Shown: positions 5,941 through 64,000, counted from the stretch's first letter. The stretch: 64,000 bases of DNA from Vicinamibacterales bacterium (GCA_963662965.1 OY759970.1:3904524-3968523), one strand, 5' to 3'. Program-made: numbers and translations. Notes: a model not told the origin generated them from the sequence alone.

Positions 5941-5947
5941 TACGACG

Positions 5948-7318: not shown

Positions 7319-7347
7319 CGGGCGAGCACGCTCTTTGACATTCCGTC

Positions 7348-7800: not shown

Positions 7801-7847
7801 GGCGGAATCTTTATCAGGGGCTACAGAGCGAGCGCAGTGGAGGCACG

Positions 7848-14360: not shown

Positions 14361-14398
14361 CGCGCCCTAGAGTGTTTTGCACCTTGGTGTCGCCGCTC

Positions 14399-14571: not shown

Positions 14572-14931
14572 GTCGCCGCTCTGAGGACCGGACAGACTCG
14601 AACGTGTAGGCGCGGTCGGGGGGTCACGGAGGACGCCATGAGGCACGCCGACGACCGCGGGGCTGAAAACGTCGCCGGAGCCGCCAGCGGACGAGCCTGT
14701 ACCCTGTGATCCGTGCCGGTCGAAGAACCCGGGCTGCAGGTTGCAGTGGCACGCGCCGCCCCTGATCAGCTATTGCTCGCCGTGTGAGGCGTTTTGCGTG
14801 CGGCGCAGTCGACGTTTTCCGGCGGGCCGATCTGGCGTCCGGAGTGAGCCCCGGCCGTGGCTGCCACACGCGTGCCCCAGGGCAACACGTGCGCGCAACG
14901 CACTAACGAAACTAACGAAACGCGCTACAGC

Positions 14932-19597: not shown

Positions 19598-20574
19598 CTG
19601 CGCACACGGAAATCAGCGACCTGGATCTCGTCTCCGAAATCCGCGTAGTCGCCGTCGGCTCGTGCCCGTCGAAACGCTCCCCAGTTGATCGTGCGGTAGC
19701 GCGGTGCGTCGCCGTCAGGCATTGGCAGCGGTGCGTAGTCGGTGTCGTAGCCGGGATTGAAGAAGAACGGAATGCTGTAGCGCGGTCGGGTAGTGACCGG
19801 TCGTACGCGGTGTAGCGCGGCCGTGAACCGATCATTCGACCAGACCTGCATCATGTCACCGATGTTGACGACCACGGTGCCCGCAATCGGCGACACGTCC
19901 TGCCACCCGTCAGAGCCCTGCACCTGCAGTCCGCCGACATCGTCCTGGAGGAGGAGCGTCAACGCGCCGGCGTCGGCGTGGTGATGCAGCGCCTGGTCGC
20001 CGAGCGCCGCCGCCTCGGCCGTCGCGTCTGAGTCAAGCGGATCCTCCAGCGGGTAGTAGTTCAGCCGGACGAAACTGGTATGCGCGGGGGAGAAGTGCCG
20101 CGTCAGCGTCTCGGTCTCGCCGACAAGCGCCGCGGTGAGGAGCGCCAGGATGTCAAACGCAAGTCGCTCACAGGCCCGGAAGTACTCCTGCATCGCGGGG
20201 CGGAGCGCCGGTCGCGACACCGGCCACTGGTTTACGCCATCGACCGCCGCGACGCCGTCGCGACCGAAGTCGAAGACCTCCTTGAGGTCACGTCGGTTCT
20301 TGGTGAGCTCCCGGTCGTAATACCCACGCGGATTCGACTTCGTCCGCATCAGGGCCAGCTTCTCGGCGCGCGGGAGGGCGAAGAGCGCGTGCGTCTCCTG
20401 CCAGACCCGATCGACCAGGGTCTGCGTGATTCCGTGGGTCGTGACGTAGAAAAATCCCCAGTCGCACGCGGCCGCGCGCACGGCCGACACGAGCGTGGTC
20501 GGGGGCGCCGCGCGCCGCGCGCCGCTTCGCGTGAAACCGCTCAGGTCGATGGTCGGGATGCCCTCGGGCGTCAT
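19594..20574 (-). CDS. 2-oxoglutarate/Fe(II)-dependent oxygenase (isopenicillin N synthase-like)
   Basis: 326 aa with the N-terminal IPTIDLSGF. The facial triad and 2OG-binding region read HHHADAGALTLLLQD...GGLQV...VVNIGDMMQVWSNDRFTAALHRV. Confidence 0.85.
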   Translation of the reverse strand: MTPEGIPTIDLSGFTRSGARRAAPPTTLVSAVRAAACDWGFFYVTTHGITQTLVDRVWQETHALFALPRAEKLALMRTKSNPRGYYDRELTKNRRDLKEVFDFGRDGVAAVDGVNQWPVSRPALRPAMQEYFRACERLAFDILALLTAALVGETETLTRHFSPAHTSFVRLNYYPLEDPLDSDATAEAAALGDQALHHHADAGALTLLLQDDVGGLQVQGSDGWQDVSPIAGTVVVNIGDMMQVWSNDRFTAALHRVRPVTTRPRYSIPFFFNPGYDTDYAPLPMPDGDAPRYRTINWGAFRRARADGDYADFGDEIQVADFRVRS

Positions 20575-20655
20575 CTATCGACGGAGGCTGCGCGTCCGAC
20601 CCCCCCCGTCGCTAGCCGGGGCCCGATGCCCGTCGCCCGTGGCGGCGGGAGGGTC
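20575..20655 (+). repeat. degenerate copy of the intergenic structured repeat
   Basis: CTATCGACGGAGGCTGCGCGTCCGACCCCCCCCGTCGCTAGCCGGGGCCCGATGCCCGTCGCCC aligns with the consensus TAGACGGGGCTGACTGCCCCGAACCCCGTCGCGGTCACTCCGGGGCCCCATGCCCCGCTCC. Confidence 0.4.
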
Positions 20656-26379: not shown

Positions 26380-26472
26380 ACGGCGCGCACGTGCGCGCCC
26401 CGCGGCCGCGGCGTGGGGCATTCGGGGTCCCCGCGAAGCGGCAGCGTGGGGTTCGGGCGAAGCCCCGACTAA
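26380..26472 (-). repeat. copy of the intergenic structured repeat (inverted orientation)
   Basis: GGCGCGCACGTGCGCGCCCC...GGGGCATTCGGGGTCCCC...GCGTGGGGTTCGGGCGAAGCCCCGACTAA is the reverse complement of the consensus. It ends CCCCGACTAA at about 26472. Confidence 0.55.
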
Positions 26473-30181: not shown

Positions 30182-30213
30182 CGTCCGCGTCGATTAGCCG
30201 GGGAGGGAACTCC

Positions 30214-32205: not shown

Positions 32206-32292
32206 GCGCCCCTGCGCCCCGTAGCGGCTAGTCCGTGTCGCACGTGCAATGTCGCGAGAGCCTGGGTAGAAGTGTGCAAATATAGTTGTCGC

Positions 32293-33662
32293 ATGCGTCG
32301 TATCACGTTCGTGATTGTCCTCGGGCTCACCCTCTCGGTCGCAACTAACCCTCTCACTGCCGAAGACTGGCCGCAGTGGCGCGGGGCGGAGCGCCTCGCC
32401 ATCTGGGACGAGACCGGCATCGTCGATGAGCTCCCCGACGCGCTGAAGGTGACGTGGCGCGTGCCGATCCGCGGCGGCTATGCTGGTCAGGCGGTCGCCG
32501 GCGGGCGGGTGTTCGTCACCGATTGGGTCGAAGATCCCGCCTCGCGAACGAGGGACGGCACCGAGCGTTTGCTCGCGCTCGACGAGGAGACCGGCGCGGT
32601 TCTCTGGACCCACGAATGGTCCGCCACCTACCGGATGCTGATGGCGTCGTACGCCATCGGGCCGCGCGCGACGCCGACAGTCGACGGCGACCGGGTCTAC
32701 GTTCTCGGCGCCACCGCCACCGGACGGCTCTTCTGCGTCGATGTTGACGACGGCGTCGTCATCTGGCAGAAGGACTACGCCGCCGACTACGACAGCAGCA
32801 TTCCGACCTGGGGGACGAGCAGCCCGCCGCTGGTCGATGGCGACCGGCTGATCGCGGTCGTCGGCGGGAAGCCGGACGCGATGGTCGTCGCGTTCGACAA
32901 GCAGACCGGCGATGAGGTCTGGCGCTCGATCGAGACGGCGGGCGAGATGGGCTACAGCCCGCCGATCATCTTCGAAGCGGGCGGGGTGCGGCAGCTGTTC
33001 AGCTGGCACCCGTCGGCGCTCGCGTCACGCGATCCCGAGACCGGCGCGTTCCACTGGTCGCAGGCGTGGGAGGCGGGCGCCGGGATGGCGATTGCGATGC
33101 CGTTCAAGAGCGGCGACTACCTGCTGGTGTCGCAGCTCTACAACGGGTCGATGATGATGCGGCTCAATCAGGACCGTCCCGCCGCGACGATGCTCTGGAA
33201 GGGGAAGGGGCGGAGCCCGGACGCGCCGAGGAGGCTGCATTCGGCGATCATGACACCGCTCGTCATCGGCGACTCGATCTACGGCCTCGACGTAAACGGC
33301 GAGCTCCGGATGCTCGACGCACGGACCGGCGAACAGGTGTGGGAAGACCTCGGATGACCGCCGCGGCGCGAAACGAATGGGGCGTGCCGCGGTGGGCAAC
33401 CGCGTTTCTCGTCAAGCAGGGCGACCGGTACTTCGCCAACACCGACGACGGGTATCTCGTGACCGCTCGTTTTACGCCCGACCGGTACGAGGAGCTTGGC
33501 CGCGTCCGATTGATCGCGCCGACGCATGCCAACAGGCTCGGCGCCCGCCGGGAGTGGGACCGGATCGTCAACTGGACGCACGCCGCCTACGCCAATCGTC
33601 ACATCGTGCAGCGCAACGACGAGGAGATCATTCGCGCCTCGCTTGCGGCCGCTGATTATTAG
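32293..33662 (+). pseudogene. PQQ-like beta-propeller repeat protein, frameshifted (paralog 1)
   Basis: The N-terminal 354 codons (AEDWPQWRGAERLAIW...) end at 33357. The C-terminal 100 aa (PRMTAAARNEW...HIVQRNDEEIIRASLAAADY) continue in another frame. A -1 shift lies near 33348 by comparison with the intact paralog 60621..61973. Confidence 0.8.
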
Positions 33663-33792
33663 GAGCCCGTGGTGAACGTCTCACGCCACGGGCGACAGGG
33701 CGCGCACGGCGCGCCCCACGGGAACGGAGCGGGGCACGGCCCCCCCCGGGCGAGTGACCGCGACGGGGTTCGGCGCAGTCAGCCCCGTCTAG
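33659..33792 (-). repeat. copy of the intergenic structured repeat (inverted orientation)
   Basis: GACAGGGCGCGCACGGCGCGCCCCACGGGAACGGAGCGGGGCACGGCCCCCCCCGGGCGAGTGACCGCGACGGGGTTCGGCGCAGTCAGCCCCGTCTAG is the reverse complement of the consensus. It lies between the PQQ stop and the recQ start. Confidence 0.7.
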
Positions 33793-36196: not shown

Positions 36197-36357
36197 GAGG
36201 CGCTGTGGGCGTTTGCGGTGCAGGTCCTGCCGGAGAGCGCCCGGTAACGTGACCGCGCCGGTCGAATGCCGTGGGACTTTCACCACGGGTTCCTGGCCCG
36301 CTACAATTCACCGAGTATCCGAGCGCGGTCCGTTCGCGCGGGAGTAGGAGAGTGCAG

Positions 36358-37371
36358 ATGCGACCACGATTCGTGACGTTGCTCAGCGTTGTCGCCCTTG
36401 TTGCCGTCGTGGCGCTCGCCGCCCCGACGACGGCGAGCGCGCAGGACGACAACTGGACCTTGCCGCGGACGGCCGACGGACATCCCGACCTACAGGGGGT
36501 CTGGGCCAACAACAACGTGACGCCGCTCGAGCGGCCTCCCGAGTGGGCCGACAAGGAGACGTTGACCGACGAGGAATTGGCCGCATTGCAGGTTGCCGCG
36601 GCGCAGGCGGTCGATGACGGCGACGCGCTCTTCGGCGACCAGCTCGTGCTGGCGGCGATCAAGCAGACGCAAGCCGAGTCGTATGACCCGACCACCGGCA
36701 ATTACAACCAGTTCTGGATCGCGGATCGCGACTTCAGCAACCGGACGTCGCTCGTGGTCGAGCCGCCCGATGGCCGCATTCCGGACATGACGTCGTCCGG
36801 CAAGGCCCGTCAGCAGATGCTCCGTGATCACCGGAGCGCGCATCCTGCCGATACCTACGCCGACCGTCCGTTGAGCGAGCGCTGTGTCACCTACGGCCAT
36901 CCGCGTTTGGGCGCCGGCTACAACAGCTACTACCAGGTATTCCAGAGCCGCGACCACGTGGTCATCTACATGGAGATGAACCACGACGCGCGCGTCATTC
37001 CGATCGATGGCACGCCATTGCTCGACGACGACGTCCGCTTGTGGCACGGCGACTCGCGCGGACACTGGGACGGCGACACGCTGGTGGTGGAGACGAAGAA
37101 CTATTCGGCGAACGCGACGTTCCGTGGCCTCACCGCCGAGAACATGGTGGTGACCGAGCGCCTGACGCGGGTCGGGCCGCAGACACTCAACTACGAAGTC
37201 ATTATTGACGATTCGACGACGTACTCCGCGCCGTGGACGGTGATGATTCCGCTCATGGGGACCACCGACGCGGTGTATGAGTACGCCTGTCACGAAGGCA
37301 ATATCGGCATGGACGGCATTCTCGCTGGCCACCGCGCCGAGGAGCGAGAGGCGGCAACCGGTTCGAAGTAA
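36358..37371 (+). CDS. secreted protein of an uncharacterised 'YEYACHEGN' family (paralog 1)
   Basis: The start was chosen at the ATG after GGAGTAGGAGAG. It has a signal peptide, then PRTADGHPDLQGVW, NYNQFW, PPDGRIP, WHGDSRGHWDGDTLVVETKNY and YEYACHEGNIGMDGILAGHR. Paralogs are at 58439..59434 and 59466..60587. Confidence 0.7.
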   Translation: MRPRFVTLLSVVALVAVVALAAPTTASAQDDNWTLPRTADGHPDLQGVWANNNVTPLERPPEWADKETLTDEELAALQVAAAQAVDDGDALFGDQLVLAAIKQTQAESYDPTTGNYNQFWIADRDFSNRTSLVVEPPDGRIPDMTSSGKARQQMLRDHRSAHPADTYADRPLSERCVTYGHPRLGAGYNSYYQVFQSRDHVVIYMEMNHDARVIPIDGTPLLDDDVRLWHGDSRGHWDGDTLVVETKNYSANATFRGLTAENMVVTERLTRVGPQTLNYEVIIDDSTTYSAPWTVMIPLMGTTDAVYEYACHEGNIGMDGILAGHRAEEREAATGSK

Positions 37372-38128: not shown

Positions 38129-38323
38129 GATGGTCTCCTCTCCGGTTTGTGGTTTCCGGTCCGCTTGCCACGGCCATGATGCCGCAACAAAGGACCGGGA
38201 GGAGTCCAGTCCATGACCGGCTCGCCTCGAGGAGCATCCGGCACTCGGAGTAACGGGAGGCGTCGTCTCGCCAAAGGCAGACGGTTTCTTCCAGGATATG
38301 CCCGACCGGCGCCGAGGATTCAG

Positions 38324-38400
38324 CGACCGCGACGGGGTCCGGGGCGGTAAGCCCCGGTTGAGAGAAGCCGCCGGCGGGGTGCGCCGTGCGCGCCCTGTCT
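38324..38400. repeat. rearranged copy of the intergenic structured repeat
   Basis: The left module is inverted (GACCGCGACGGGGTCCGGGGCGGTAAGCCCCGGTTGA). It is directly followed by the right module in forward orientation (CGGCGGGGTGCGCCGTGCGCGCCCTGTCT). Confidence 0.45.
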
Positions 38401-41585: not shown

Positions 41586-42020
41586 CTACGCACGAGGGCG
41601 ATATTCGCTCAGCATGAGCTGCACGCGCGCGGTGAGTCGCGCCCGCAGCTCGTCGCGGACGTCGACTCGCGGGCACGTCTCGGCGGCGTACGCCAGCCAA
41701 TTCTCCACGTAGTCGTGCAGCCAGACGGCGTACTCGCGGCACGCGTCGTCGTCCTTCACCACCGAGAGGCCCCGGCGGACCCACGTGTCGAAGCGGGCGA
41801 CCGCCAGCTCGAGCATCTGTGATCGGTAGCGGTCCGAATCGGTGGTGACCGTGGCGGTGCGGCTCAGTTGGTGGTCGTGACGGTCCAAGGCGCAGCGGGC
41901 GACGGTGGTCGCGTCCTCCCACAGACGGTGCCGTGGGTCGTCCGGCCCGAACGGGTTGCCGCCTTCCACCGGGTCGCGGTGCGACCATCGCGGGCGAGCC
42001 GTGCGCGCCCTGAGCATCAT
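41586..42020 (-). CDS. hypothetical cytoplasmic protein
   Basis: The ORF 41586..42119 was trimmed to Met34/35 to avoid overlap with the divergent DUF1592 gene. No motif was recognised, and coding status is supported only by length and codon style. Confidence 0.35.
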   Translation of the reverse strand: MMLRARTARPRWSHRDPVEGGNPFGPDDPRHRLWEDATTVARCALDRHDHQLSRTATVTTDSDRYRSQMLELAVARFDTWVRRGLSVVKDDDACREYAVWLHDYVENWLAYAAETCPRVDVRDELRARLTARVQLMLSEYRPRA

Positions 42021-51659: not shown

Positions 51660-53768
51660 GTGGAGGTGATGCCGATGAATCACGCGCACAGACACGGACG
51701 AGTGCTCGCCACGGCAGGTCTCATCGCCTGCTCGTGGGGCTGGCTGAGCGCGCAAGGCGCGGTCATCATCGACGGTGACGACATCGGCGGCGTCGTCACG
51801 AGCGCCAACGGTCCCGAGGCTGGCGTCTGGGTCATCGCCGAGACGAACGACCTGCCGACGAAGCTGGCCCGCATCGTCGTCACCGATGAGCAGGGACGCT
51901 ACGTCGTCCCTGACCTGCCGAACGGTGCCTACGAGGTGTTCGTCCGTGGCTACGGGCTGGTCGACTCCGCTCGCGTGTCTGCACGACCTGGCCAGCAGCT
52001 GAATCTGCAGGCGACCGTGGCGCCAGACGCGAGGGCGGCGGCGCAGGTCTATCCGGCGGCCTGGTGGCTGACGATGATCGAGCCGCCGGCGTCCGAAGAG
52101 GCCCAGCTCGATTTTGCCTTGACGATGAAGCAGTGCTACGACTGCCATCAGGTCGGCAACAAGGCGACCCGCGAGATCCTCCCGGTGATCCGCGGTCGCA
52201 GTGGGTCGTCGCTCGACATTTGGATCCGGCGCACCGCCGTCGGACCGTCCGGGCCGGGGATGGCGACGCAGTTCCGGAACCTCGGCGACATGCGCCAGGC
52301 GCTCGCCGACTGGAGCGATCGCGTCGCCAACGGCGCGGCGCCGACCGAGCCTCCGCCGCGGCCGCGCGGCGTCGAGCGGAACCTCGTCATCACGCTCTGG
52401 GACTGGGGGTCCGAGATCGACGGCCGGACCGACATGGCCGCGGCCGACATCCGCGACGGCACCGTGAACGCGAATGGCCTCGTCTTCGGCGTGGCGGAGA
52501 TGACCGATTCGCTGACCATCCTCGACCCGGTGGCGCATCGCGCGTCAGTCGTCACGGTGCCGTCCGACGCCTCGCCGTTGGTCGGTGGGTTCAATGCCTC
52601 GCCGACCCGCTCGCCGCACTACGGTGACGACGTCTGGGCGCGCCGCGCCGACGTCCGCAGCTCGGCGGTCGACGCCACGGGCCGCGTCTGGATGGCGTCA
52701 CGCGTGCGCGACCGCGACGACCAGCCGTCGTTTTGCAGCTCGTCGGAGAATGCGTTTGGCGCGTACTACCCGCTGGAGGTGGCGAACCGGCAGGTCTCGA
52801 TCTACGACCCGGCGACCGAGGAGTTCGAGCAGATCAATACCTGCTTCAGCGCCGACCACAACCAGATGAGCGACGACAACTTTCTCTACTTTGGCCAGAA
52901 CGGGGCGGTCGGCTGGGTCGACATGGATGTGTGGGACGAGACGCATGACGCCGAGGCGTCGCAAGGCTGGTGTCCAGCCGTGATCGACACGAACGGTGAC
53001 GGGCGCATCACTGAGTGGACCGAGCCGGACGAGCCGATCCGTCCAAACATGGACCACCGGATCAACTTCGGCTGCTATTCGGTGGCGGTCAGCCACAGCG
53101 ACGGCAGCCTCTGGTGCTCCGGCATCGGCCGTGGCGACAAGCGCTTGGTGCGTATCGAGAAGGGCGACAACCCGCCCGAGACCTGCAAGGCGGAATACTA
53201 CGAGCCGCCGCCCGACCGGATGCCGGACGTCGTCGGGTCAGGCGGAGTCGAGGTTGACGCGGCCGGTATCGCATGGCAGAACTGGCGCGTCAGCGGGCAC
53301 TACTCGGGCTTCGACCGGACGCTGTGCGATTCGACCGCCGACCCGCAGGCGACGGGGCAGAGCTGCCCCGAAGGATGGTCGTATCAACGGAAGGATGATC
53401 CGACCTATGGCCGTAGCTTTTATCACGCCAACGAAAGCTACCTGGCGCATATGGACTTCCACGACACGCTCGGCCTTGGCGCCGACGCTCCCATTTATGG
53501 CTCGGTGAACACCGATGCGATGGAAGTGATCTCGCCGAATCTCGGCCAGTACGTGACGCTGCGTGTCCCATACCCGCTCGGGTTCTTTCCCCGCTCCGGC
53601 AACGGCCGTATCGATGATGCGAACGCCGGCTGGAAGGGCAAGGGTTATTGGGCAAGCTTCTCGACGTACGCCACCTGGCACATTGAGGGTGGTCGCGGGG
53701 AGGGCGGTTCTGGCGTTCGACCAAAAGCGGTGAAGTTCCAGTTTCGACCCGATCCGCTCGCGAAGTAA
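51660..53768 (+). CDS. secreted CarboxypepD_reg-like + monoheme cytochrome c + large C-terminal domain protein (paralog 2)
   Basis: 702 aa with GGVVTSANGPEAGVWVIAETNDLPTKLARIVVTDEQGRYVVPDLP and the heme motif MKQCYDCH. It ends AVKFQFRPDPLAK. The start could be GTG 51660 or a downstream ATG. Confidence 0.75.
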   Translation: MEVMPMNHAHRHGRVLATAGLIACSWGWLSAQGAVIIDGDDIGGVVTSANGPEAGVWVIAETNDLPTKLARIVVTDEQGRYVVPDLPNGAYEVFVRGYGLVDSARVSARPGQQLNLQATVAPDARAAAQVYPAAWWLTMIEPPASEEAQLDFALTMKQCYDCHQVGNKATREILPVIRGRSGSSLDIWIRRTAVGPSGPGMATQFRNLGDMRQALADWSDRVANGAAPTEPPPRPRGVERNLVITLWDWGSEIDGRTDMAAADIRDGTVNANGLVFGVAEMTDSLTILDPVAHRASVVTVPSDASPLVGGFNASPTRSPHYGDDVWARRADVRSSAVDATGRVWMASRVRDRDDQPSFCSSSENAFGAYYPLEVANRQVSIYDPATEEFEQINTCFSADHNQMSDDNFLYFGQNGAVGWVDMDVWDETHDAEASQGWCPAVIDTNGDGRITEWTEPDEPIRPNMDHRINFGCYSVAVSHSDGSLWCSGIGRGDKRLVRIEKGDNPPETCKAEYYEPPPDRMPDVVGSGGVEVDAAGIAWQNWRVSGHYSGFDRTLCDSTADPQATGQSCPEGWSYQRKDDPTYGRSFYHANESYLAHMDFHDTLGLGADAPIYGSVNTDAMEVISPNLGQYVTLRVPYPLGFFPRSGNGRIDDANAGWKGKGYWASFSTYATWHIEGGRGEGGSGVRPKAVKFQFRPDPLAK

Positions 53769-53824
53769 GCACGGAGTGGCGCAGCGGCGTCATTCGAGAC
53801 ACCGATGACTATCAGGAGGACCAC

Positions 53825-54505
53825 ATGAGCAAGCAGCACCTTTGGGCACTCGCAGTGGCGGCCGCAGTTGCGTCAGCGGCGGTCATGTCGACGGCAGTCG
53901 TGGCGCAGCAGCCACCTCCGCAGCCGATGTCGTTTTTCATCACGAGCGTCGGACTCGGCGATGGCGCCAACCTCGGTGGTCTCGAGGGTGCCGATGCGCA
54001 CTGCCAGTCGCTAGCTGCCGCCGCCGGCCGCGGTGACTCGACCTGGCGGGCCTATCTGAGCACGCAGGGAGCAAACGCGGTCAACGCGCGCGATCGAATC
54101 GGCAGCGGGCCGTGGTACGCCCATGGGGGTCGCCGGCAGATCGCGGCCGACCAAGGATGGCTGCACGGCGACACGCTCGACCAGGCGCGGCTCGGCAACG
54201 CCATCGGAAAGATGATCGCGCTGACCGAAGAGGGCAACCCGGTCAACGGGCTTGGCGATTCACCGAACCAGCACGACATTCTGACGGGAACGATGCCCGA
54301 CGGACGCGCCTACACCGACGGGGATGACCATACCTGCGGCAGCTGGACCAGCAACGGCGACGGGTCGGCGCGGGTCGGCCATTCCGATACCCACGGCGGC
54401 GGCAACAGCTCGTGGAACTCGGCGCACGCGAGCCGCGGCTGCAGCCAGGAGAATCTGGTCAGCACCGGCGGGGCCGGGTATTTCTATTGCTTTACGGTGA
54501 ATTGA
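53825..54505 (+). CDS. secreted endostatin-like / C-type-lectin-fold protein (paralog 2)
   Basis: 226 aa with FFITSVGLGDGANLGGLEGADAHCQSLAAAAGRGDSTWRAYLST, HTCGSWTSNG and YFYCFTVN. It is a clear paralog of 26474..27118. Confidence 0.6.
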   Translation: MSKQHLWALAVAAAVASAAVMSTAVVAQQPPPQPMSFFITSVGLGDGANLGGLEGADAHCQSLAAAAGRGDSTWRAYLSTQGANAVNARDRIGSGPWYAHGGRRQIAADQGWLHGDTLDQARLGNAIGKMIALTEEGNPVNGLGDSPNQHDILTGTMPDGRAYTDGDDHTCGSWTSNGDGSARVGHSDTHGGGNSSWNSAHASRGCSQENLVSTGGAGYFYCFTVN

Positions 54506-55034: not shown

Positions 55035-55160
55035 TTAGTCGGGGCTGATTGCCCCCGAACCCCGTCGCCGGCACTCGCGGGGCCCCCCGTGCCCCGCTCC
55101 GTGCCGGCGGGGGCGCGCGGTGCGCGCACTGGCTCCTCAGCGGCGGCAGACCCCATCTAA
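55035..55160 (+). repeat. intergenic structured repeat, full-length copy (about 126 bp)
   Basis: TTAGTCGGGGCTGATTGCCCCCGAACCCCGTCGCCGGCACTCGCGGGGCCCCCCGTGCCCCGCTCCGTGCCGGCGGGGGCGCGCGGTGCGCGCACTGGC...GACCCCATCTAA. An extra solitary end CCCCGTCTAA lies at about 55167-55176. Confidence 0.75.
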
Positions 55161-55376
55161 CTACAGGCCCCGTCTAATTAAAAGAACACGACAACGCAGT
55201 AGACGAGCGCGCCGATCACGATGCATCCGCCGCAGCACAGTAGTTTCAATATCTGCAGCCCTCCCCGTCGAGTCGTGGTCTGTTCGACGTCGTTCGACTC
55301 CGAACGGTTCACTATAAGTTAACAAAACTCATAGAATATAGTGACACTTCCCACGGAAACGACTACACTCCGGTGC

Positions 55377-56477: not shown

Positions 56478-58343
56478 CTACGCCGAGCAGCAGGGACAGG
56501 TCGGTCCGCCAGGCGTGTAGCTCGTCGTCGCGTTCCGGGGATTCTGCCTCCGGCGACTGGATGCCGACAGTCCAGCGGCCGTAGCGGCTGCCGTTGGCGA
56601 CGTTTCCGACGCCTCCGCCGAGCTCCCATCACGATGGTCGCGTCGGTTCGCGTCATCCCGTCGAGCGGCCTGCGCGTTCGATCCGCGATACCCGGTAAGA
56701 ATCTGATAGTGACGCTGCTCGATCTTGCCGTCGAGCCTGATGCTATTCGCCCCGTCGACGGCGTAGCGGCGGAACGGCTCGCCGTCGCACAGGATGAACA
56801 CCTCATCGGTGTTCGACAGGTTGGTGACGCGCCAGCTCGTGTCGAGACCGCGCCGGTCGGGTGCGGCGGCATACGTGCCGACATGGAGCGTGCCGCTGTC
56901 GACGTCGTTCCACGCCTGGTAGATGCCGAGCGCGGGGAAGTCGACCCCTTCGACCGTCGGCGCGTCATACTTGTCTAGGTGTGGTGCGTCGAACGCGCGG
57001 TACCAAGCGTCGCCGGTGCCGACCTCAGACACCATCATGCTCGCGCTTCGCTGACCGCGCGGATACGCCTCGTTCAGGCCGAACCACCAGCCGAATTTCT
57101 CGTTCTGCTCGCCGAAGAAGCGCGGGTCGTAATCGCGCTCTGCCGCGGCCTGCAGTCTAGCCACTGCCGTGTGGTCGCCGAGCTCGCGCGCCATGACGAG
57201 GCCGGTCGCCGAGGCCAGAATCTCGACACGGGGATCGTTCCAGCCGAGGGCGTTGGCCGCCGATTCGTACAGAAACGTCGCCAGCTCGCGGTCCTGCGGC
57301 AACAACAGGAACGCATTGCCGACGCCGGCTGCGGGACCGCCGTTCGCCTTGTGGTTCACGATCGGGTCGTAGTAGCTGGTGACGGTCTGCAGCTTCCCGT
57401 CGGTCCCGATCTCCATGAAGTTCTCGCGCGCGTATTCGAGCCACCCCTCGACCGGGCGGTGCGTGTGGCGGCCGTTGAGTCTGTCGTAGAAGTACATCCC
57501 GAGCCCGGCGGCGGCGTTGCACGGAAACCAGATCTTCGTGTTCTCGCATTGCGGCCCCTCGGGATGGTCGCGATACTGACGCTCGAGCAGCTCGGCGATC
57601 CGATGCTGGTCCCACTGGAAGACCTGGTCGCCGTAGCCGGTCACGTCGAACGACCGCTCGTACTTGTCGTCGCCCGAGATGTATTTGTAGATACCGAGGA
57701 CGAGATTGAACCATCCGCGGAAGAACAGATTGCCGTCCGAGCCGATCGGATCAGACGACAGACCCCACGGTTCGATCCCGTTCGCGGTCCACCCGATGCG
57801 GTTGTAGTTGCCGCGGAGCCGCTCTGGAATCCCGGCCATCACGCGGTCGGGATAGTTCGCGCGCCGCGGATCGTCGCCGATCTGCGTGAGCCAGTCGATG
57901 GCGCCCCAGTAGGTCGGATACCGGCTCGCCAGTCCGTCGGCGATCGCCGTGTACGCCTCCCGCCACGCCGGTGTCTGATCGGCCATCAGCAGCAGGGCGT
58001 ACGACGAATTGTGCAAGTCGAAGCGCCCGTAGCTGGTGACGACCGGATTCGAGTAGCGGTCCCACCACATGTGCGGCACGCCGTCGGCGTTCCAGTCGTC
58101 CGGGGTCGTCGCTTTTTCCCAGAGGAAGCGGAGCCAGCCGCGAGTGCGCCGGTTGAGCGTCGGATGGATTGACTGGGGGGTCTCGACCGGGAGCTCGGGA
58201 CTCTGAACCTGCCCCCCGGCTTCTCCCGCTTCCGCTCCGCCTATCAATGTTCCGGACGAGAAGGCGGCCGCCCCCGTCGCGCCGAACTGCTTCACGAAGG
58301 TGCGTCGAGAGTGTCCCTTGTCGCTCGCCATCGAATCCCCCAA
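56478..58343 (-). CDS. Tat-exported hypothetical protein (about 620 aa)
   Basis: It has the canonical twin-arginine signal SRRTFVKQFGATGAAAF and a Trp/Tyr-rich body (WWDRYSNPVV, YPTYWGAIDWLTQ). The last about 70 aa are a low-complexity Arg/Ser/Ala tail. I could not assign a family by eye. Confidence 0.65.
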   Translation of the reverse strand: MGDSMASDKGHSRRTFVKQFGATGAAAFSSGTLIGGAEAGEAGGQVQSPELPVETPQSIHPTLNRRTRGWLRFLWEKATTPDDWNADGVPHMWWDRYSNPVVTSYGRFDLHNSSYALLLMADQTPAWREAYTAIADGLASRYPTYWGAIDWLTQIGDDPRRANYPDRVMAGIPERLRGNYNRIGWTANGIEPWGLSSDPIGSDGNLFFRGWFNLVLGIYKYISGDDKYERSFDVTGYGDQVFQWDQHRIAELLERQYRDHPEGPQCENTKIWFPCNAAAGLGMYFYDRLNGRHTHRPVEGWLEYARENFMEIGTDGKLQTVTSYYDPIVNHKANGGPAAGVGNAFLLLPQDRELATFLYESAANALGWNDPRVEILASATGLVMARELGDHTAVARLQAAAERDYDPRFFGEQNEKFGWWFGLNEAYPRGQRSASMMVSEVGTGDAWYRAFDAPHLDKYDAPTVEGVDFPALGIYQAWNDVDSGTLHVGTYAAAPDRRGLDTSWRVTNLSNTDEVFILCDGEPFRRYAVDGANSIRLDGKIEQRHYQILTGYRGSNAQAARRDDANRRDHRDGSSAEASETSPTAAATAAGLSASSRRRQNPRNATTSYTPGGPTCPCCSA

Positions 58344-58438
58344 ACCTCCACGCCTCGCACTCTAGCGCGGATCGAGCGGGAGCGGTTAGGATGGTGCAGC
58401 GAGGCCTTGGATTTTCGCGCTTTGAAAGGGAGGTCCGT

Positions 58439-59434
58439 GTGACCGGTCGAATGAAAGTGGCGTCGGTGGTCGTGATGGCGGCGGTGCTTCTCGGCGGACC
58501 GGTGGCACAGGCGCAGGAGACGCCTCGCACGGCATGGGGCGATCCCGACCTGAATGGCGTCTGGGACTTCCGCACGTTGACGCCGTTCGAGCGGCCGGAA
58601 GAGCTGGCCGAGCAAGAGTTTTTCACCGAGGAAGAGGCGGCGACCTTCGAGGCGAACAAGCTCGCCGAGTTCGCGGTCCGCGATGACCAGGAGCCGGCCG
58701 ACATCGTCGGCAACTACAACCAGTTCTGGTTCGACCCGGGCGAGACCGTCAGCGCCACCAACCAGACGTCGATCGTGATCGATCCGCCGAATGGCCGCGT
58801 CCCGCGGCTAGCGGCCGTGGCGCAAGCGAAGGCCGACGCGCTGCTCGAGCATCGCCAGGGGATCAATCGCCACGTGCCGACCTACGGCGGCTTCGTCGAC
58901 GACCTCGGCGGTGGGATGTTCGCGGTCCGCTGCATCCTCGGGTTCAACTCCGGACCGCCGATGACCCCGGGCGGCTACAACCAGAACGTCCAGGTGTTTC
59001 AGACGCCCGACCATGTGGTGCTGTTGAACGAGATGGTCCATAGCTCGCGTGTGATTCCCATCGACGGTCGTGGGCATTTACCGGACGACGTTCGGCAGTG
59101 GATGGGCGATTCGCGCGGTCATTGGGAGGGCGACACGCTGGTGGTCGAGACGACCAATTTCCTCCGCGAGACGAGCTTCCGCGGTGGCGTCACGACGGCG
59201 GACCTCCGGCTCACCGAGCGCTTTACGCGGGTGTCCGACGGGACGCTGATGTATGACGTGACCGTCGAGGATCCGAGCGCGTGGGACCGTCCCTGGTCGT
59301 ATCGGATTCCGATGCAGAAGAACGCGATGCCGATCTTCGAGTACGCGTGTCACGAGGGGAACTACGGGTTGTTCAACATCCTCGCGGGGGCGCGTGAGAA
59401 AGAAGCGGTGATGGATGCGGCGGCCGGTCGGTAG
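58439..59434 (+). CDS. secreted 'YEYACHEGN' family protein (paralog 2)
   Basis: A GTG start lies 5 nt after GGGAGG (alternative ATG at 58451). Motifs are the signal peptide MKVASVVVMAAVLLGGPVAQA, PRTAWGDPDLNGVW, NYNQFW, PPNGRVP, WMGDSRGHWEGDTLVVETTNF and FEYACHEGNYGLFNILAGAR. Confidence 0.7.
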   Translation: MTGRMKVASVVVMAAVLLGGPVAQAQETPRTAWGDPDLNGVWDFRTLTPFERPEELAEQEFFTEEEAATFEANKLAEFAVRDDQEPADIVGNYNQFWFDPGETVSATNQTSIVIDPPNGRVPRLAAVAQAKADALLEHRQGINRHVPTYGGFVDDLGGGMFAVRCILGFNSGPPMTPGGYNQNVQVFQTPDHVVLLNEMVHSSRVIPIDGRGHLPDDVRQWMGDSRGHWEGDTLVVETTNFLRETSFRGGVTTADLRLTERFTRVSDGTLMYDVTVEDPSAWDRPWSYRIPMQKNAMPIFEYACHEGNYGLFNILAGAREKEAVMDAAAGR

Positions 59435-59465
59435 TGTGGCTGGGTCGATCTTGATGGCGGGCGTG

Positions 59466-60587
59466 ATGCGGAATCGCATGATCGCGGTCGTGTGTGCCTC
59501 ACTGTTGCTGGTCCCGGCGCTGTCGTCGGCGCAGGACGAGATTCCGCGCACGGCCAGCGGCCGACCGGACCTGTCCGGCACCTATGACACGGCCACGCTG
59601 ACACCGCTGCAGCGGCCCCAAGGATTCGGGGATCGCGGCACGCTAACCGAGGAAGAGGCGGCGCTGGTCCAGACCAACCCTGAAGAGCTCCGCCGGCTCT
59701 ACAGCATTGGGCCGAGCGGATCGGATGAGCGGCGCGCGGCTCGCGTCCAGGAGACAGGTCAGGCCGAGGAGACGGGCGTGGTGCCCCCGGCCGGCGGTGA
59801 TGGTTCGGGTGGCGCCGCCGGCAATGTCGGCGGCTACAACACCTTCTGGATTGATCGCGGTAGCGGCGTGTTCCAAATCGACGGTCAAGTACCGACGTCA
59901 ATCATCACCGACCCCGCCAACGGCCGTCGTCCGCCGATGACCGACGACGCCCGTGCCGCGGCGCGGCAGCGCGCGGCCTTCTTCCGTTCGAATACCGGCA
60001 CGGCGTGGTGGCTCGAAGACAATCTCAAAGCGCCCGGTCCATATGACCACCCTGAGATTCGTCCGCTCGCGGAGCGGTGTTTGCTCGGCTTCGGGTCGAC
60101 CGCCGGGCCGCCGATGTTGCCGGTCCTCTACAACAACCTGAAGAGAATCGTGCAGACGGACGACCACTTGATGATCTTGGTCGAGATGGTGCACGACGCG
60201 CGCATCGTACGGATGAACCAGGACCATGCGCCCGACGCGATTCGAAGCTGGCTCGGCGATTCGGTTGGTCACTGGGACGGCGACACGCTCGTCGTCGACA
60301 CCACCAACTTCAACGACTCGCCGGCGCTCGGCGGTGCGTCGCGGAACCTGCACGTCGTCGAGCACTTCACGCGAATCGGTCCCGAGGGGCTGCTCTACGA
60401 GTTCACGGTCGAGGATCCGACGATCTGGACCGAGCCGTGGAGCGGTGAATACGTCTGGCCGGCTACCGATACGCGCGTCTACGAGTACGCCTGTCACGAG
60501 GCGAACTACTCGTTCCGCGGCATTCTCGGCGGCGCCCGCATCTTGGAACAGGATGTACGGGAGGCAGCCGGGCGGCCGCGTAATTGA
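59466..60587 (+). CDS. secreted 'YEYACHEGN' family protein (paralog 3)
   Basis: The start was chosen at MRNRMIAVVCASLLLVPALSSAQ. Motifs are PRTASGRPDLSGTY, GYNTFW, PANGRRP, WLGDSVGHWDGDTLVVDTTNF and YEYACHEANYSFRGILGGAR. Confidence 0.7.
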   Translation: MRNRMIAVVCASLLLVPALSSAQDEIPRTASGRPDLSGTYDTATLTPLQRPQGFGDRGTLTEEEAALVQTNPEELRRLYSIGPSGSDERRAARVQETGQAEETGVVPPAGGDGSGGAAGNVGGYNTFWIDRGSGVFQIDGQVPTSIITDPANGRRPPMTDDARAAARQRAAFFRSNTGTAWWLEDNLKAPGPYDHPEIRPLAERCLLGFGSTAGPPMLPVLYNNLKRIVQTDDHLMILVEMVHDARIVRMNQDHAPDAIRSWLGDSVGHWDGDTLVVDTTNFNDSPALGGASRNLHVVEHFTRIGPEGLLYEFTVEDPTIWTEPWSGEYVWPATDTRVYEYACHEANYSFRGILGGARILEQDVREAAGRPRN

Positions 60588-60620: not shown

Positions 60621-61973
60621 GTGCGTATTCGTATTGCGCCACTTCTGTGTTCGGCGGTTGTTCTCTCGACCGTCGCGGTGACGGCCGAAGACTGGGCACA
60701 GTGGCGCGGGCCCGACCGCCTCGCCATCTGGCACGAGGCCGGAATCGTCGGTGAGCTGCCCAACGAGCTGCTGGAGAAGTGGAGCACGACGATTCGCTCG
60801 GGATACTCCGGTCCTGCCGTAGCCGACGGCCGGATCTTCATCACTGATTGGTTCGAGGACCCGGAATCACGCACGCTCGACGGCACCGAGCGCGCTCTCG
60901 CGCTCGACGAAGAGACCGGCGAGATTCTCTGGACCCACGAGTGGCAAACGAGCTACCGGATGCTGTCGGTTAGCTACGCCGTCGGTCCGCGTGCGACACC
61001 GACCGTCGACGGCGACCGGGTTTATGTCGTGGGCGGAACCGGACGGTTGTTCTGCTTCAACGTCGAGACCGGCGACGTGCTCTGGGAGAAGGACTACGTC
61101 ACCGAGTACGACACGAGCGTGCCGGTTTGGGGGATCGTCAGCGGGCCGCTCATCGATGGCGACCGGCTGATCACGCTCGTCGGCGGCGAGCCCGATGCCG
61201 GTGTCGTCGCGTTCGACAAATACACTGGCGAGGAGATCTGGCGGGCGATCGAGGTCAGCTCCGAGATGGGCTACGCGCAGCCGGTCATCTACGAGGCTGG
61301 CGGCGTCCGGCAGCTGATCATCTGGCATCCGCTGGCGTTGGCGTCGCTCAACCCGGTGACGGGCGAGCAGTACTGGGAAGAGCGGTGGGACGTGTCAATG
61401 GGCGTCACGGTCGCGACCCCCGTGCGGAGTGGCGACTACCTTCTCGTCTCGCAGTTCTTCAATGGCTCGATGATGATGCGGCTCAACAGCGATCGTCCTG
61501 ACGCGACGATGCTCTGGAAAGGGCAGAGTCGGAGCGAGCTGCCTGGCGAGACCGACACCATCCACGCGATGGTGACGACGCCGCTCATCATCGGCGACTA
61601 CGTCTACGGGGTCGATAGCTACGGGGAGCTGCGCGGTCTCGACGCCGAGACGGGCGAGCGCATCTGGATGAGCCCGGAGATGACGGCGCAGGCGCGGTGG
61701 AGCACCGCGTTTCTCGTGCGCCACGGCGACCGGTACCTCGTCAACAACGACGAGGGATACCTCATCTCGGCCCAGTTCACGCCGTCCGGTTACGTCGAGC
61801 TGAGCCGCACACGCCTGATCGAGCCGACCGCCAGCTCCGGCACCCGTACCCCGCACGGCCGGATCGCCGAGCGGATCGTCAACTGGTCGCACCCGGCCTA
61901 CGCCAACGGACACATCGTGCACCGCAACGACGAGAAGATCATCCGCGCGTCTTTACGTGCCGTTGACTATTAG
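60621..61973 (+). CDS. PQQ-like beta-propeller repeat protein (paralog 2, intact)
   Basis: 450 aa with a GTG start after AGGAGG and a signal peptide. Motifs are AEDWAQWRGPDRLAIW, repeated DGDR(V/L)Y/I blades and the C-terminal HIVHRNDEKIIRASLRAVDY. Confidence 0.8.
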   Translation: MRIRIAPLLCSAVVLSTVAVTAEDWAQWRGPDRLAIWHEAGIVGELPNELLEKWSTTIRSGYSGPAVADGRIFITDWFEDPESRTLDGTERALALDEETGEILWTHEWQTSYRMLSVSYAVGPRATPTVDGDRVYVVGGTGRLFCFNVETGDVLWEKDYVTEYDTSVPVWGIVSGPLIDGDRLITLVGGEPDAGVVAFDKYTGEEIWRAIEVSSEMGYAQPVIYEAGGVRQLIIWHPLALASLNPVTGEQYWEERWDVSMGVTVATPVRSGDYLLVSQFFNGSMMMRLNSDRPDATMLWKGQSRSELPGETDTIHAMVTTPLIIGDYVYGVDSYGELRGLDAETGERIWMSPEMTAQARWSTAFLVRHGDRYLVNNDEGYLISAQFTPSGYVELSRTRLIEPTASSGTRTPHGRIAERIVNWSHPAYANGHIVHRNDEKIIRASLRAVDY

Positions 61974-62025
61974 ATCGCGCTTGAACGCGTAGCCGCGAGG
62001 TCACTCCGGCTGCAGCGATGCGCAC

Positions 62026-62520
62026 TCAGTGCACCCGAGACGTTTCCGCTGAAGTGTTGGGTGGCTGCTGCTCCTGTGTGCGTGGCTCCCAGAGCACGCT
62101 GATCGCCCAGTCTTCGTCCAGCCGTTCTCCATGCCATTGGGGCTGCGGTGGGACCGCGGGGAGCAGCCGGCCGTCCGGCCGGAAGAACCGCGCTTCCCCG
62201 TTCGTGTCGACTTGGAGGGTGAACCCCTTTTCGTGCACCGCCCGGTGGTGATGCCGGCAGAGGAGCACGAGGTTGTCGAGCCTCGTCGTCCCACCGTCGG
62301 CCCAATGGCGGACGTGATGAGCGTCGTAGTGGCGAGCTGCGCAGCCGGAGAACTGGCAGTGGTGGTCCCGCGCGGTGAGTGCCCGTCGGATTGCTGGAGA
62401 GATCGTCCGGGTCTTGCGTCCGACGTCGAGCACGCGGCCGTCTGGGGCGTGTCGCATGACCAGGGTCGATGCGTCGCACGCCATGCGTCGGGACGTTTCA
62501 GCTGAAACGTGCAGACCGTC
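62026..62520 (-). pseudogene. C-terminal fragment of a DUF222-type HNH endonuclease
   Basis: ISPAIRRALTARDHHCQFSGCAARHYDAHHVRHWADGGTTRLDNLVLLCRHHHRAVHEKGF is an HNH motif. The expected 250-300-aa N-terminal domain is absent. The apparent ORF N-terminus is encoded by the adjacent repeat copy. Confidence 0.8.
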
Positions 62521-62525
62521 TACTT

Positions 62526-62622
62526 CTAGACGGGGCTGACTGCCCCGAACCCCGTCGCGGTCACTCCGGGGCCCCATGCCCCGCTCCGTTCCCGCGGGGC
62601 GCGCCGTGCGCGCCCCCTGTCC
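62526..62622 (+). repeat. copy of the intergenic structured repeat
   Basis: CTAGACGGGGCTGACTGCCCCGAACCCCGTCGCGGTCACTCCGGGGCCCCATGCCCCGCTCCGTTCCCGCGGGGCGCGCCGTGCGCGCCCCCTGTCC. The right end is uncertain. A further 9-bp-stem hairpin CCTGTCCGA...TCGGACAGG follows at about 62616-62650. Confidence 0.75.
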
Positions 62623-62669
62623 GACGCGTGTCAGTGTTGCTCGGACAGGCTCCCAGCACTGACTGTCCG

Positions 62670-64000
62670 TCCGTGCTGTCGTGGCGGGTCGCTCCCTCTC
62701 GACTGCGGCAGGTGCTCAGGGCGTGTCTCCAGAAGGAACCGAAGGATCGAGTCCGAGACATTGGCGACGTTAGCGTGGCGATGAAGGGGACGTTCGAGAC
62801 TGTCGTCACCGCACCATCTGAACCGACCATCAGGCCTCGCCTTCACGTCTGGCAGCAACCGATCCCGGCTGTCGCCGCTGGCCTGACGTTGCTGGTCATC
62901 GGAGGGGTCGCGGTGTGGAGTCTGACCCTTCCCGCGCCACCCCGCGTGGCTCGCTTTCCGATTCCATTAGCCGCTGACCAGAACTTCAGCTTCACGGGCC
63001 GTCCCACGGTGGGGCGATCTCTCCCGACGGCTCTCACGTCGTTTACGTGGCGACGAGCAGCCTGTGGCTGCGCCCCGTCGATCTCAGTTGCCATCCAGGT
63101 GCCGGGTACCGAAGAGGAAGCGCGAGGGCCGTTCTTTTCGGCCGACGGGCAATCGATCGGGTTCTGGGCTGACGGACAGTTGAAGAAGGTCTCGGTGAGT
63201 GGGGGGGGCACCGGTGACTATCGCCGACGTGCCCACCTATGCCGGTGGGCCCAGTTGGGGTGCCGACGACATGATTCTCTCTGGCCAGCCAGACGGCATC
63301 TGGCAGGTGCCAGGCGCGAGCGGCACGCCGGAACTGCTGATTCCGGTCGAAGAGGGCGAAGTCATCCACCGGCCACAGATGCTGCCCGACGGCGAGTGGG
63401 TGCTGTTTACGGTGGCAGCGGCCTCGGTGTCCTGGGACGCGGCGCAGATTGTCGCCAAATACGTGACGACCGGCGAACGCACGGTGCTGATCGAGGGCGG
63501 CCGCGATGGGCGGTATGTCCGCACCGGCCATCGCGTCTACGTCTTGAACAACGTGCTGTACGCGGTGCCGTTCGATGTCGGCGGCCGCTAGGCCACCGGT
63601 GGGCCGGTCCCGCTCGTCGAAGGGGTGAGAACGGCCACCCGAGGGGCGGCCCAGTTCAGTGTGTTCGCCACCGGTTCGCTGGTCTATGTCCCCGGCTCGG
63701 CGGGAAGTGGCAACGTCTTCACGTTGACATGGGTGGGCCGCGACGGGAACGAAGAGAGTATCCCCGCCCCACCACGAGCGTATGGGCGTCCACGCGTGTC
63801 CCCGGATGGCAGTCGACATCAACGATGGGGACAATCGGGACATCTGGACCTGGGATCTGGCGCGGGAGACGCTGACACAGCTCACCTTCGATGAGGCGGA
63901 CGACAACTACGTGCTGTGGACGCCGGATAGCGCGCGGGTCGTGTTCGCCTCGACACGCGACGGCGGCGGGCTGTTCTGGAAAGCGGCCGAAGGCACGGGC
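62670..64000 (+). pseudogene. decayed C-terminal part of a Ser/Thr-kinase-associated TolB-like (PD40) beta-propeller protein
   Basis: It has only a kinase-tail-like segment (LRQVLRACLQKEPKDRVRDIGDV), then a TM helix, then propeller blades spread over three frames. Two compensating shifts lie near 63010-63090. One shift is in a G8 run (63201-63208). An in-frame TAG lies at 63589-63591 and another shift near 63810. The feature runs off the window end. Confidence 0.7.

Follow-up and report, generated by a model that had tools for sequence, protein, structure and literature searches.

What kind of element begins at position 55035 of a 64,000-nucleotide stretch of DNA from an uncultured soil acidobacterium of the order Vicinamibacterales (GCA_963662965.1 OY759970.1:3904524-3968523), and why do related sequences recur at other gene boundaries nearby? 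An initial annotation, made from the sequence of this stretch (hereafter the window) alone, described a family of structured intergenic repeats of about 126 bp with terminal inverted repeats (TIRs). It offered three options, namely a miniature inverted-repeat transposable element (MITE) or a repetitive extragenic palindromic (REP)-type element, an expressed structured RNA, or a terminator. Our analysis confirms that the repeat family exists, and among these options a REP-type element fits best. Specifically, we lean modestly towards a lineage-specific, non-coding and non-autonomous interspersed repeat of the REP or bacterial interspersed mosaic element (BIME) type, probably moved in trans by a Y1 (HUH) transposase.

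Five strong units are detected in the window both by an nhmmer profile and by a covariance model (R1), which was built from an alignment of the copies as the initial annotation had suggested. This model is the source of the bit scores quoted here. It assigns all five full units E-values of 2e-6 or lower, and it also recovers copies in related genomes. An unbiased repeat search and a direct reading of the coordinates first claimed likewise reveal a common sequence at unrelated loci, with identities of 80-96% over ~95 nt (83-86% within subfamily A, defined below). The end motif TAGWYGGGG occurs nine times in the window where 0.9 occurrences are expected, and eight of the nine lie within the family; the remaining one, at 12485, is in coding sequence. 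The genome is 66% G+C, and one of the fragments first claimed proves to be at chance level, such that one could suspect mere chance similarity among G+C-rich hairpins. This reading is already refuted by E-values that reach 1e-9 to 1e-10, by the identity between unrelated loci, and by the motif count.

Alignment of the copies defines a common unit of ~95-105 nt that is asymmetric and carries three hairpins. Read from 5′ to 3′, the unit begins with a YTAG(A/T)(C/T) foot, which is followed by hairpin H1, a GAACCCC linker, hairpins H2 and H3, and a short tail. The foot appears as CTAG, TTAG, TCAG or TTGG, its first base is never G, and 2 nt separate it from H1. H1 is a short G/C hairpin (GGGGC-loop-GCCCC) with a stem of 5-7 G:C pairs, for which subfamily A offers an alternative outer pairing, GACGGGG/CCCCGTC. 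The linker is invariant and unpaired. H2 is long and bipartite: an internal loop separates the 9-bp outer stem from an inner stem of 5-6 bp, and a slippage-prone G/C homopolymer of variable length forms the tip. H3 has the form GGCGCGC-NGT-GCGCGCC and leads into a YTGGYC or CTGTC tail, and further alternative pairings are available between H2 and H3. Thus, the two alternative H1 pairings and the variable central homopolymer proposed in the initial annotation both hold, as does the 9-bp stem with a 3-nt loop of the right hairpin, in the 62526 unit.

Two subfamilies, which differ within the window by 26-34%, can be distinguished. In subfamily A, represented by four window copies, the H1 loop is TGACT and is followed by CCCCGTCGC. 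In subfamily B, represented in the window only by the copy at 26382-26472, H1 is GGGGCTTCGCCC and is followed by CCCCACGC. Some units are extended by additional structure. For example, the 62526 unit is followed by extra local hairpins as far as ~62665, and the unit at 33699-33792 is extended down to ~33660 by an extra hairpin and a GGCTCCTAA tail. The region 55035-55177 folds as DNA with its ends paired (z = -3.0).

The length of ~126 bp and the TIRs attributed to the family stand only for the copies at 55035 and 11188, whereas the other units have no inverted repeat on their right-hand side. Inverted left-end fragments (CCCCATCTAA, GGCCCCGTCTAA and CCCCACTAA) are carried by these two copies only, such that an inverted right end is present in two of the five full window units and in none of the copies read in other genomes (those designated L079a and b, L083, and L087a and b). 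The apparent TIRs are extra inverted left-end fragments of two copies. A full inverted pair in a related genome (contig L087) shows how such ends originate, because one of two units arranged as an inverted pair can subsequently become truncated.

The three hairpins are recovered by RNAalifold, and all are preserved by compensatory substitutions across copies and genomes. In a set of 12 copies from four or more Vicinamibacterales genomes, 93.9% of cells are standard pairs, compared with 37-52% when the 3′ partners are slid by 1-3 columns; these pair counts lean towards the structure because the alignment was fitted to the model. Both sides have changed in nine of 27 pairs (0-3 in the slid controls), and the covariation score of 0.173 compares with at most 0.062 in these controls. 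None of 500 shuffles reaches the observed values. Compensatory changes can nonetheless be recognized by eye, and include CGCCGGCAC:GTGCCGGCG versus CGCGGCCGC:GCGGCCGCG in the outer stem of H2, GACGCGC:GCGCGTC in H3 (L087), and GGGGAGC:GCTCCCC in H1 (L083). Single-stranded DNA folds give z-scores from -0.5 to -5.6, most of them between -3 and -5.6. There are four G-T wobbles and seven A-C mismatches. Since G-T is not in excess of A-C, there is no sign that one strand is a functional RNA, and the pattern is as expected for DNA palindromes. Open reading frames (ORFs) that overlap the units have no coding potential and no protein-family match. A tRNA-like origin of H1 was also considered and rejected, as ARAGORN finds nothing.

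Weaker pieces in the window were judged by their local alignment scores relative to dinucleotide shuffles (n=300). By this measure, the degenerate copy first reported at 20575-20655 is genuine; it is missed by nhmmer and by the covariance model. The copy reported as rearranged at 38324-38400 resolves into an H1 module, 38321-38361(-), and an inverted H3 module, 38371-38399(+). Two of the short fragments (14347-14368, and ~55167-55176, which is an inverted left end at 55167-55178) are above chance, with their scores reached by 0/300 and 3/300 shuffles, respectively. In contrast, scores for the fragment at 14650-14685 are reached by 92/300 and 217/300 shuffles, and it is at chance level. The copies first placed at 33659-33792 (-), ~26380-26472 (-) and 62526-62622 (+) correspond to covariance-model units at 33699-33792, 26382-26472 and 62526-62614. 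In the orthologous contigs L096 and L097, another full copy can be seen ~0.5 kb beyond the end of the window. All of the window features are collected in Table 1.

The family is found in at least three other Vicinamibacterales genomes, with three copies in L079, one in L083 and two in L087 (the taxon of the relatives, Vicinamibacterales or Acidobacteriota, was taken from the names of their RecQ homologues). The species represented by the window is also present in several soil metagenome assemblies and in the metagenome-assembled genome (MAG) GCA_047515085.1. The site upstream of RecQ holds one unit in the window, two tandem units immediately upstream of the gene in L079 (RecQ 78% identical), which also has a short H1+H3 unit downstream, and no unit in L080-L082 (RecQ 77% identical), in none of which the family was seen. 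The unit ending at 26472 is 91% identical to L079a, while the RecQ proteins of these two genomes are 78% identical. The inverted pair in L087 (4129-4220 on the plus strand and 4316-4406 on the minus strand) was reached through protein P0122, one of only two proteins returned by a six-frame repeat-peptide query. The other, P0121, is the orthologue of the ORF that follows the 62526 unit. No copy of the family was seen in the 12.8 kb examined of a Luteitalea MAG.

As the initial annotation had noted, copies are situated at gene boundaries. All are intergenic, in either orientation, and they lie between convergent, co-directional and, twice, divergent genes (11188; L079a and b). The left end of the element, in sense orientation, abuts or donates the stop codon of the upstream gene (within 0-2 nt) for the copies at 55035, 26472 and 14347 and for L079c. 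At 11188, 33792 and L079a, the left end lies directly against the start codon of a gene that reads away from it. For example, the unit at 26382-26472 lies between two co-directional genes and starts 2 nt past the upstream stop codon, whereas that at 33699-33792 fills the gap from the stop of a PQQ-repeat gene (33660-33662) to the RecQ start (33804). The fragment at 14345-14368 provides the TGA stop of a heptosyltransferase gene, and the module at 38371-38399 abuts the stop codon of an aldose-epimerase gene. Sequence and gene calls thus confirm that neighbouring ORFs acquire stops and spurious N-terminal extensions from the repeat. Specifically, gene calls in eight contigs place the start of the ABC ATPase at 11177, and therefore its 11-codon extension into the 11188 repeat is spurious. 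The family accounts for a recurrent annotation hazard in this lineage, in the form of spurious N-terminal extensions, donated stops and false small ORFs, and knowledge of it is of use when these genomes are annotated. Promoter-like and terminator-like patterns at the units are not more numerous than in shuffles. A terminator scan flags no full unit and only the solo fragment at 14353-14368, and a T-run follows the hairpins at only one solo fragment.

Strains of the species differ more in the copies than in the flanking sequence. The copy at 11188 has a 20-bp deletion (CGCGGGGGCGCGCACGTGCG, at window position 11260-11262) that takes out exactly the H3 palindrome, between short direct repeats. 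This deletion is present in the window and in five of the seven strain contigs that cover the site, whereas L088 and L092 (3896-3990) retain H3; the site scores 61.8 bits in the window versus 86.9 bits in the latter two contigs. The 55035 copy is altered in L002 and L004 (3540-3570, corresponding to window 55080-55110), where CTCCG has become CGAG and H2 has become a perfect 14-bp palindrome (GGCACTCGCGGGGC / GCCCCGCGAGTGCC), which looks like hairpin-templated correction. Moreover, an insertion sequence (IS) of the IS630 family (DDE_3), ~1 kb in length with AAGCGCTTTTCATGACC... ends and a TA duplication, is polymorphic among strains (L001 3497-4523; L090 ~2536-3475; L094 ~654-1594). The copy in L001 is inserted in the TTAG foot of the 55035 repeat, and the others disrupt the ABC-transporter gene beside the 11188 repeat. 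The repeat is thus a hotspot of micro-rearrangement: palindromes are deleted, homopolymers slip, and an IS has inserted at its TTAG end.

What process could maintain such an element? The family is dispersed and modular, with copies arranged as singletons, head-to-tail pairs (L079) and inverted pairs (L087). It has covarying hairpins, two subfamilies, presence or absence of copies between relatives, and decay at individual loci. It is the intergenic location in both orientations, the single, tandem and inverted arrangements, the compensated hairpins and the locus-by-locus decay that make a REP-type element the best fit. Units would be copied as single-stranded DNA, with the hairpins and the foot (the foot plus H1 and linker) recognized in trans by a Y1/HUH transposase. 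The putative enzyme would be of the RAYT, TIRYT or class-3 type and encoded by a single-copy gene elsewhere in the genome. New copies may land beside TAG-containing sites at gene ends. What selection would then preserve is a unit's capacity for being copied, not a service to the host at each locus, and effects on neighbouring transcripts (stability, read-through, or donated stop and start codons) would be secondary. The retention of hairpins across the family while single loci decay is expected if selection acts on propagation of the element and not on a host function at each site.

Several observations weigh against a REP-type element. A tblastn search with 11 RAYT/TIRYT sequences (from the supplement of PMC3733652) finds no Y1/HUH transposase in the window or in 87 additional loci. 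The canonical GT[AG]G tag of REPs is absent, the foot instead being YTAG, YCAG or TTGG, and the unit is 3-4 times the length of a classical REP. In addition, no pair of empty and filled sites is close enough to fix the exact ends or a target duplication, and the eight window copies (five plus, three minus) have no clear bias relative to the direction of replication. Finally, the identity of subfamily B across genomes could reflect constraint at the level of the host.

This last point bears on the possibility that the element is a host-functional RNA, transcribed with its neighbours as a 3′-untranslated-region stabilizer, as a terminator or attenuator based on mutually exclusive hairpins, or as a small RNA, for which any spread would be secondary. 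Such a role would accommodate the covariation of the hairpins, the alternative pairings in H1 and between H2 and H3, the invariance of the unpaired linker, the 91% identity of subfamily B across genomes, and the many copies found 0-2 nt from a stop codon in sense orientation. However, copies occur in both orientations relative to flanking genes, most strains tolerate the loss of H3, many copies are degenerate or solo, and there is no match in Rfam even at E <= 10. The wobble pairs provide no strand signal for a transcribed RNA. The terminator version in particular is unsupported, because the hairpins lack subsequent T-runs, the relevant patterns are not enriched, and two sites are between divergent genes. 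We consider a primary function as a host RNA unlikely, and a secondary effect of this kind possible.

Two other types of mobile element deserve comparison. A classical MITE would be a deletion derivative of a DDE transposon (e.g. IS630/Tc1-like) that moves by cut-and-paste via its TIRs and duplicates TA. Inverted TTAGAYGGGG / CCCCRTCTAA ends, with TA flanking either end, do enclose the elements at 55035-55178 and 11188-11313, but the inverted TTAG/CTAA ends themselves already contain TA. Likewise, the IS630-family IS is active in the population and has inserted, with TA duplication, exactly in the TTAG of one copy, yet its ends are unrelated to the repeat. It is the only IS seen nearby (L001, L090 and L094), and it is rejected as the parent element. 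The right-hand inverted repeat is missing from the units at 62526, 33699 and 26382 and from L079a and b, L083, and L087a and b. Head-to-tail pairs and solo H1 or H3 modules are also a poor fit to a TIR-defined unit, whereas inverted partial units, comparable to the full inverted pair in L087, account for the TIRs. Given that most units have no right TIR and that the sole IS seen has unrelated ends, a MITE origin is quite unlikely.

Alternatively, the unit could be a miniature element of the IS200/IS605 type (a palindrome-associated transposable element), in which H1 and H3 would serve as subterminal end hairpins and TnpA would insert the unit 3′ of YTAG without duplication. Asymmetric ends, subterminal hairpins and units without TIRs would all suit this arrangement, as would the conserved YTAG tetranucleotide immediately 5′ of the unit and the existence of a head-to-tail pair. 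The ends of IS200/IS605 elements, however, carry similar hairpins that are bound by the same TnpA site (PMC6006769), whereas H1 and H3 are unlike in both sequence and shape. Furthermore, TnpA and TnpB are not found in the window or in the 87 loci. We regard this possibility as very unlikely, and retain a REP/BIME-type repeat as the preferred description.

Parts of the unit may have relatives outside this order. A degenerate pattern for H1 plus linker (GGGGCT N3-5 GCCCC N3-4 CCCCGTCGC) reveals that a 27-28-nt H1 core (GGGGC-loop-GCCCC-N3-4-CCCCGTCGC) recurs in multi-copy intergenic repeats of unrelated taxa. Among the matches listed, Clostridia MAGs account for at least 13 copies in Ca. Gallacutalibacter pullicola, at least seven in a Eubacteriales MAG and one in Merdibacter; a Symbiobacteriaceae MAG, a Treponema MAG and a metagenome contig (L008) also carry the core. 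The listed matches from the scan of genome contigs include many that are probably due to chance in G+C-rich genomes, and the window's own species is not among them. The scan of metagenomes gave eight matches, only one of which (L008) extends beyond the pattern, and viral contigs gave none. In all of these taxa, the core is followed directly by an 8-9-bp hairpin of lineage-specific sequence, just as H2 follows H1. A few features outside the pattern are also similar: L008 has the loop TGACT, L066 the foot TAGAT, and L031 and L046 the linker AAG. The rest of the Clostridia-type element is unrelated to our family, and the whole-unit model scores it at only 19-30 bits (E 0.1-4). An all-against-all comparison of ORFs near the Clostridia copies reveals no shared protein, transposases included.

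By analogy with GTAG-tagged REPs and their RAYTs, the H1 core might be the recognition module of an undescribed, cross-phylum super-family of REP-like elements that is served by a conserved enzyme, with the Vicinamibacterales unit as one elaborate member. We consider this proposal doubtful. The shared core is the search pattern itself, which introduces ascertainment bias, and its recurrence may reflect convergence of G/C hairpins. Were the cross-phylum core to prove real, GTAG and CGTC would be joined by a third tagged super-family of REP-like elements.

The Clostridia-type element is itself a structured repeat of ~120 nt, composed of a GGAACGCTTCGCGTTCC hairpin, GTGGGGGCTCCTCGCCCCCAC-ACCCCGTCGC, a AAGCTTTTGAAAAAGCTT hairpin and a GAGCAAAACTTTTATGTTTTGCTC hairpin. 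It has no match in Rfam, in plasmid and viral collections, or in the literature searched. In one Eubacteriales contig (L046), the H1 core forms tandem arrays with a period of ~43 nt.

Table 1. Repeat units, modules and fragments in the window, and contigs that carry Clostridia-type elements (CM, covariance model).
Feature	Position or contig	Strand	Evidence
Full unit, subfamily A: CTAG foot, H1, GAACCCC linker, H2, H3, CTGTC tail	62526-62625	+	CM 62526-62614, 85.9 bits, E 1e-9; DNA fold z = -3.75
Inverted partial left-end motif GTAGACGGTCTGC, abutting left end of 62526 unit	62511-62523	-	Read directly from sequence
Full unit, subfamily A	55035-55128	+	CM 81.5 bits; found in 5/5 related contigs L001-L005
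Tail with two inverted left-end motifs, TTAGATGGGG (55151-55160) and TTAGACGGGGCC (55167-55178)	55129-55178	-	Sequence; motif count; shuffles
Full unit, subfamily A	33699-33792	-	CM 74.5 bits; 92-98% complementary to 62526 unit
Full unit, subfamily B (H1 = GGGGCTTCGCCC)	26382-26472	-	CM 72.8 bits; 91% identical to L079a
Unit, subfamily A, H3 lost by 20-bp deletion; inverted left-end fragment CCCCACTAA at end	11188-11313	+	CM 11188-11284, 61.8 bits
Solo H1 module and linker	38321-38361	-	nhmmer E 1.5e-4; alignment score 50 vs shuffle maximum 30
Solo H3 module and CTGTC tail, opposite to neighbouring H1 module	38371-38399	+	Score 41 vs shuffle maximum 31
Degenerate copy over H1 and H2 regions	20573-20655	+	Score 38 vs shuffle maximum 33, 0/300
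Solo left end (14 nt) with short H1-like hairpin, T-rich stretch after	14345-14368	+	0/300 shuffles; terminator-like pattern 14353-14368
Solo H3 remnant with CCTGA tail	41985-42012	+	Pattern match, 1 mismatch; weak CM match 41967-42009
Clostridia-type element, Ca. Gallacutalibacter pullicola	L015, L020, L022, L028, L038, L039, L041, L043, L053, L055, L059, L061		
Clostridia-type element, Eubacteriales MAG	L019, L031, L046, L064, L067, L072		
Clostridia-type element, further contigs	L042, L066, L065, L008		

The neighbours of the repeats in the window are housekeeping genes, including those for an ABC ATPase, a heptosyltransferase, LpxD, RecQ, a multihaem cytochrome, PQQ-propeller proteins and an aldose epimerase. 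The 62526 repeat is flanked by a truncated DUF222-HNH endonuclease pseudogene (61970-62521, minus strand), which keeps HNH and only the last ~46 positions of DUF222, and by a Ser/Thr-kinase-like C-terminal remnant (62640-63875, plus strand). Gene remnants on both sides place this repeat at a rearrangement breakpoint. The HNH homologues of related MAGs are mostly short or frameshifted (e.g. L098 5547-6771). A link between the repeat and the DUF222-HNH gene was considered and rejected, because the gene is a truncated pseudogene here and its Luteitalea homologue (L098) has no repeat within 12.8 kb. A small ORF at 55178-55249 (minus strand) encodes a very hydrophobic, cysteine-rich peptide (LKLLCCGGCIVIGALVYCVVVFF) and ends in a TAA stop that overlaps the 55035 element at its right end.

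The window also contains diverged paralogous blocks with 70-83% DNA identity (28019-33662 versus 51660-54118 and 60621-61973; 36271-37371 versus 58169-60587), which include CarboxypepD_reg-type proteins, PQQ-propeller genes and a tandem triplet of genes for proteins of ~370-420 aa. The repeats beside two of the PQQ paralogues differ in orientation and distance, and therefore were not duplicated together with the genes. An exact-protein look-up for 59415-60587 returned no record. The double-ABC_tran gene at 11571-12888 is divided into two ORFs in the window and in most strains, whereas it is intact (438 aa) in L091, suggesting that a frameshift is polymorphic. Between the heptosyltransferase and LpxD genes, a spacer of 572 bp harbours an imperfect hairpin of ~120 nt (14436-14558; RNA fold -64.8 kcal/mol, z = -3.3) for which Rfam provides nothing significant (best E = 0.78). 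Positions 7348-7804 encode a class A bacterial RNase P RNA (261 bits), which at 457 nt exceeds the 367-position model and thus carries insertions. Outside the window, positions 1-4700 of L083 are nearly free of long ORFs, have a tRNA 3′ end beside the repeat copy (~640-700) and are probably an rRNA/tRNA operon; they are followed at 4736-7496 by an IS21-like element (HTH_21, Mu-transpos_C_2, IstB).

How does this family relate to repeats that are already known? The initial annotation did not recognize it, and this verdict stands. The only Rfam match in the window at the gathering threshold is RNase P, with none at E <= 10 around the 62526 unit, and neither the plasmid and viral collections nor the literature searched for the sequence strings of the repeat provides a match. 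The REP, BIME and REPIN elements of Proteobacteria are GTAG-tagged and are moved by RAYT Y1 transposases (PMC3733652, PMC6006769). Like these, the Vicinamibacterales repeats are extragenic, G+C-rich hairpin units with a short conserved foot 5′ of the hairpin. They occur in many copies (here at least five full units, in addition to fragments, in 64 kb) that stand alone or form inverted pairs and clusters, and are mosaics of modules that are specific to a species or lineage and lie mostly between convergent or co-directional genes. Unlike REPs, which have one hairpin in 20-40 nt, the present unit has three distinct hairpins in ~95-105 nt, and thus the full unit falls outside the ~20-65 nt of a GTAG-type palindrome, for which H1 alone would qualify by size. 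Its YTAG foot, 2 nt from the stem, differs from the GT[AG]G located 0-2 nt 5′ of the hairpin foot in REPs, and tblastn finds no RAYT in the window or the 87 loci.

Pneumococcal BOX, enterobacterial ERIC/IRU (~127 bp) and Neisseria Correia elements are modular intergenic repeats as well. They share with our family a length of ~100-150 nt, several hairpin modules that can be lost or duplicated, sites at gene boundaries, and possible effects on neighbouring transcripts. There is no sequence similarity, and the asymmetric unit described here contrasts with the long TIRs that bound ERIC and Correia elements.

Precedents for a REP-like element come from the literature on other Y1 transposases, in part from the same phylum. 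In Acidobacteria and Planctomycetes, atypical hairpins border the class-3 TnpA(Y1) genes and reach ~600 copies in Solibacter usitatus (PMC6006769). Repeat families with the motif GGGG[AT][CG]A[CG] accompany TIRYT genes, one group of which is acidobacterial (PMC3733652). These too are high-copy structured repeats, found in the same phylum, that lack a GTAG tag. The left end of subfamily A (GGGGCTGAC) resembles the TIRYT motif but for one extra base (7/8 positions when aligned as GGGCTGAC), whereas subfamily B lacks the motif. The published class-3 foot, CnGA, which we compared by description only, fits only the TCAG-footed copies. CGTC-type REPs have an unpaired CGTC tag at the stem end, an 8-9-bp stem that opens with A/T pairs, a 4-5-nt loop and a CCA tail (Di Nocera et al. 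2013; PMC3733652). In our family, by contrast, CGTC is inside CCCCGTCGC, 6 nt from H1, the H1 stem consists of 5-7 G:C pairs, and there is no CCA tail.

We assign no named family, because the repeats differ from classical REPs in their tag and from CGTC-REPs in their architecture. Rather than a new kind of system, we file them as a new family among interspersed structured extragenic repeats. Discovery of the mobilizing enzyme would widen the known substrate range of Y1/HUH transposases. Regardless, a well-structured family with covarying hairpins and two coexisting subfamilies, from a phylum in which such elements have barely been catalogued, offers a reasonable entry point to Y1-transposase biology in Acidobacteriota.

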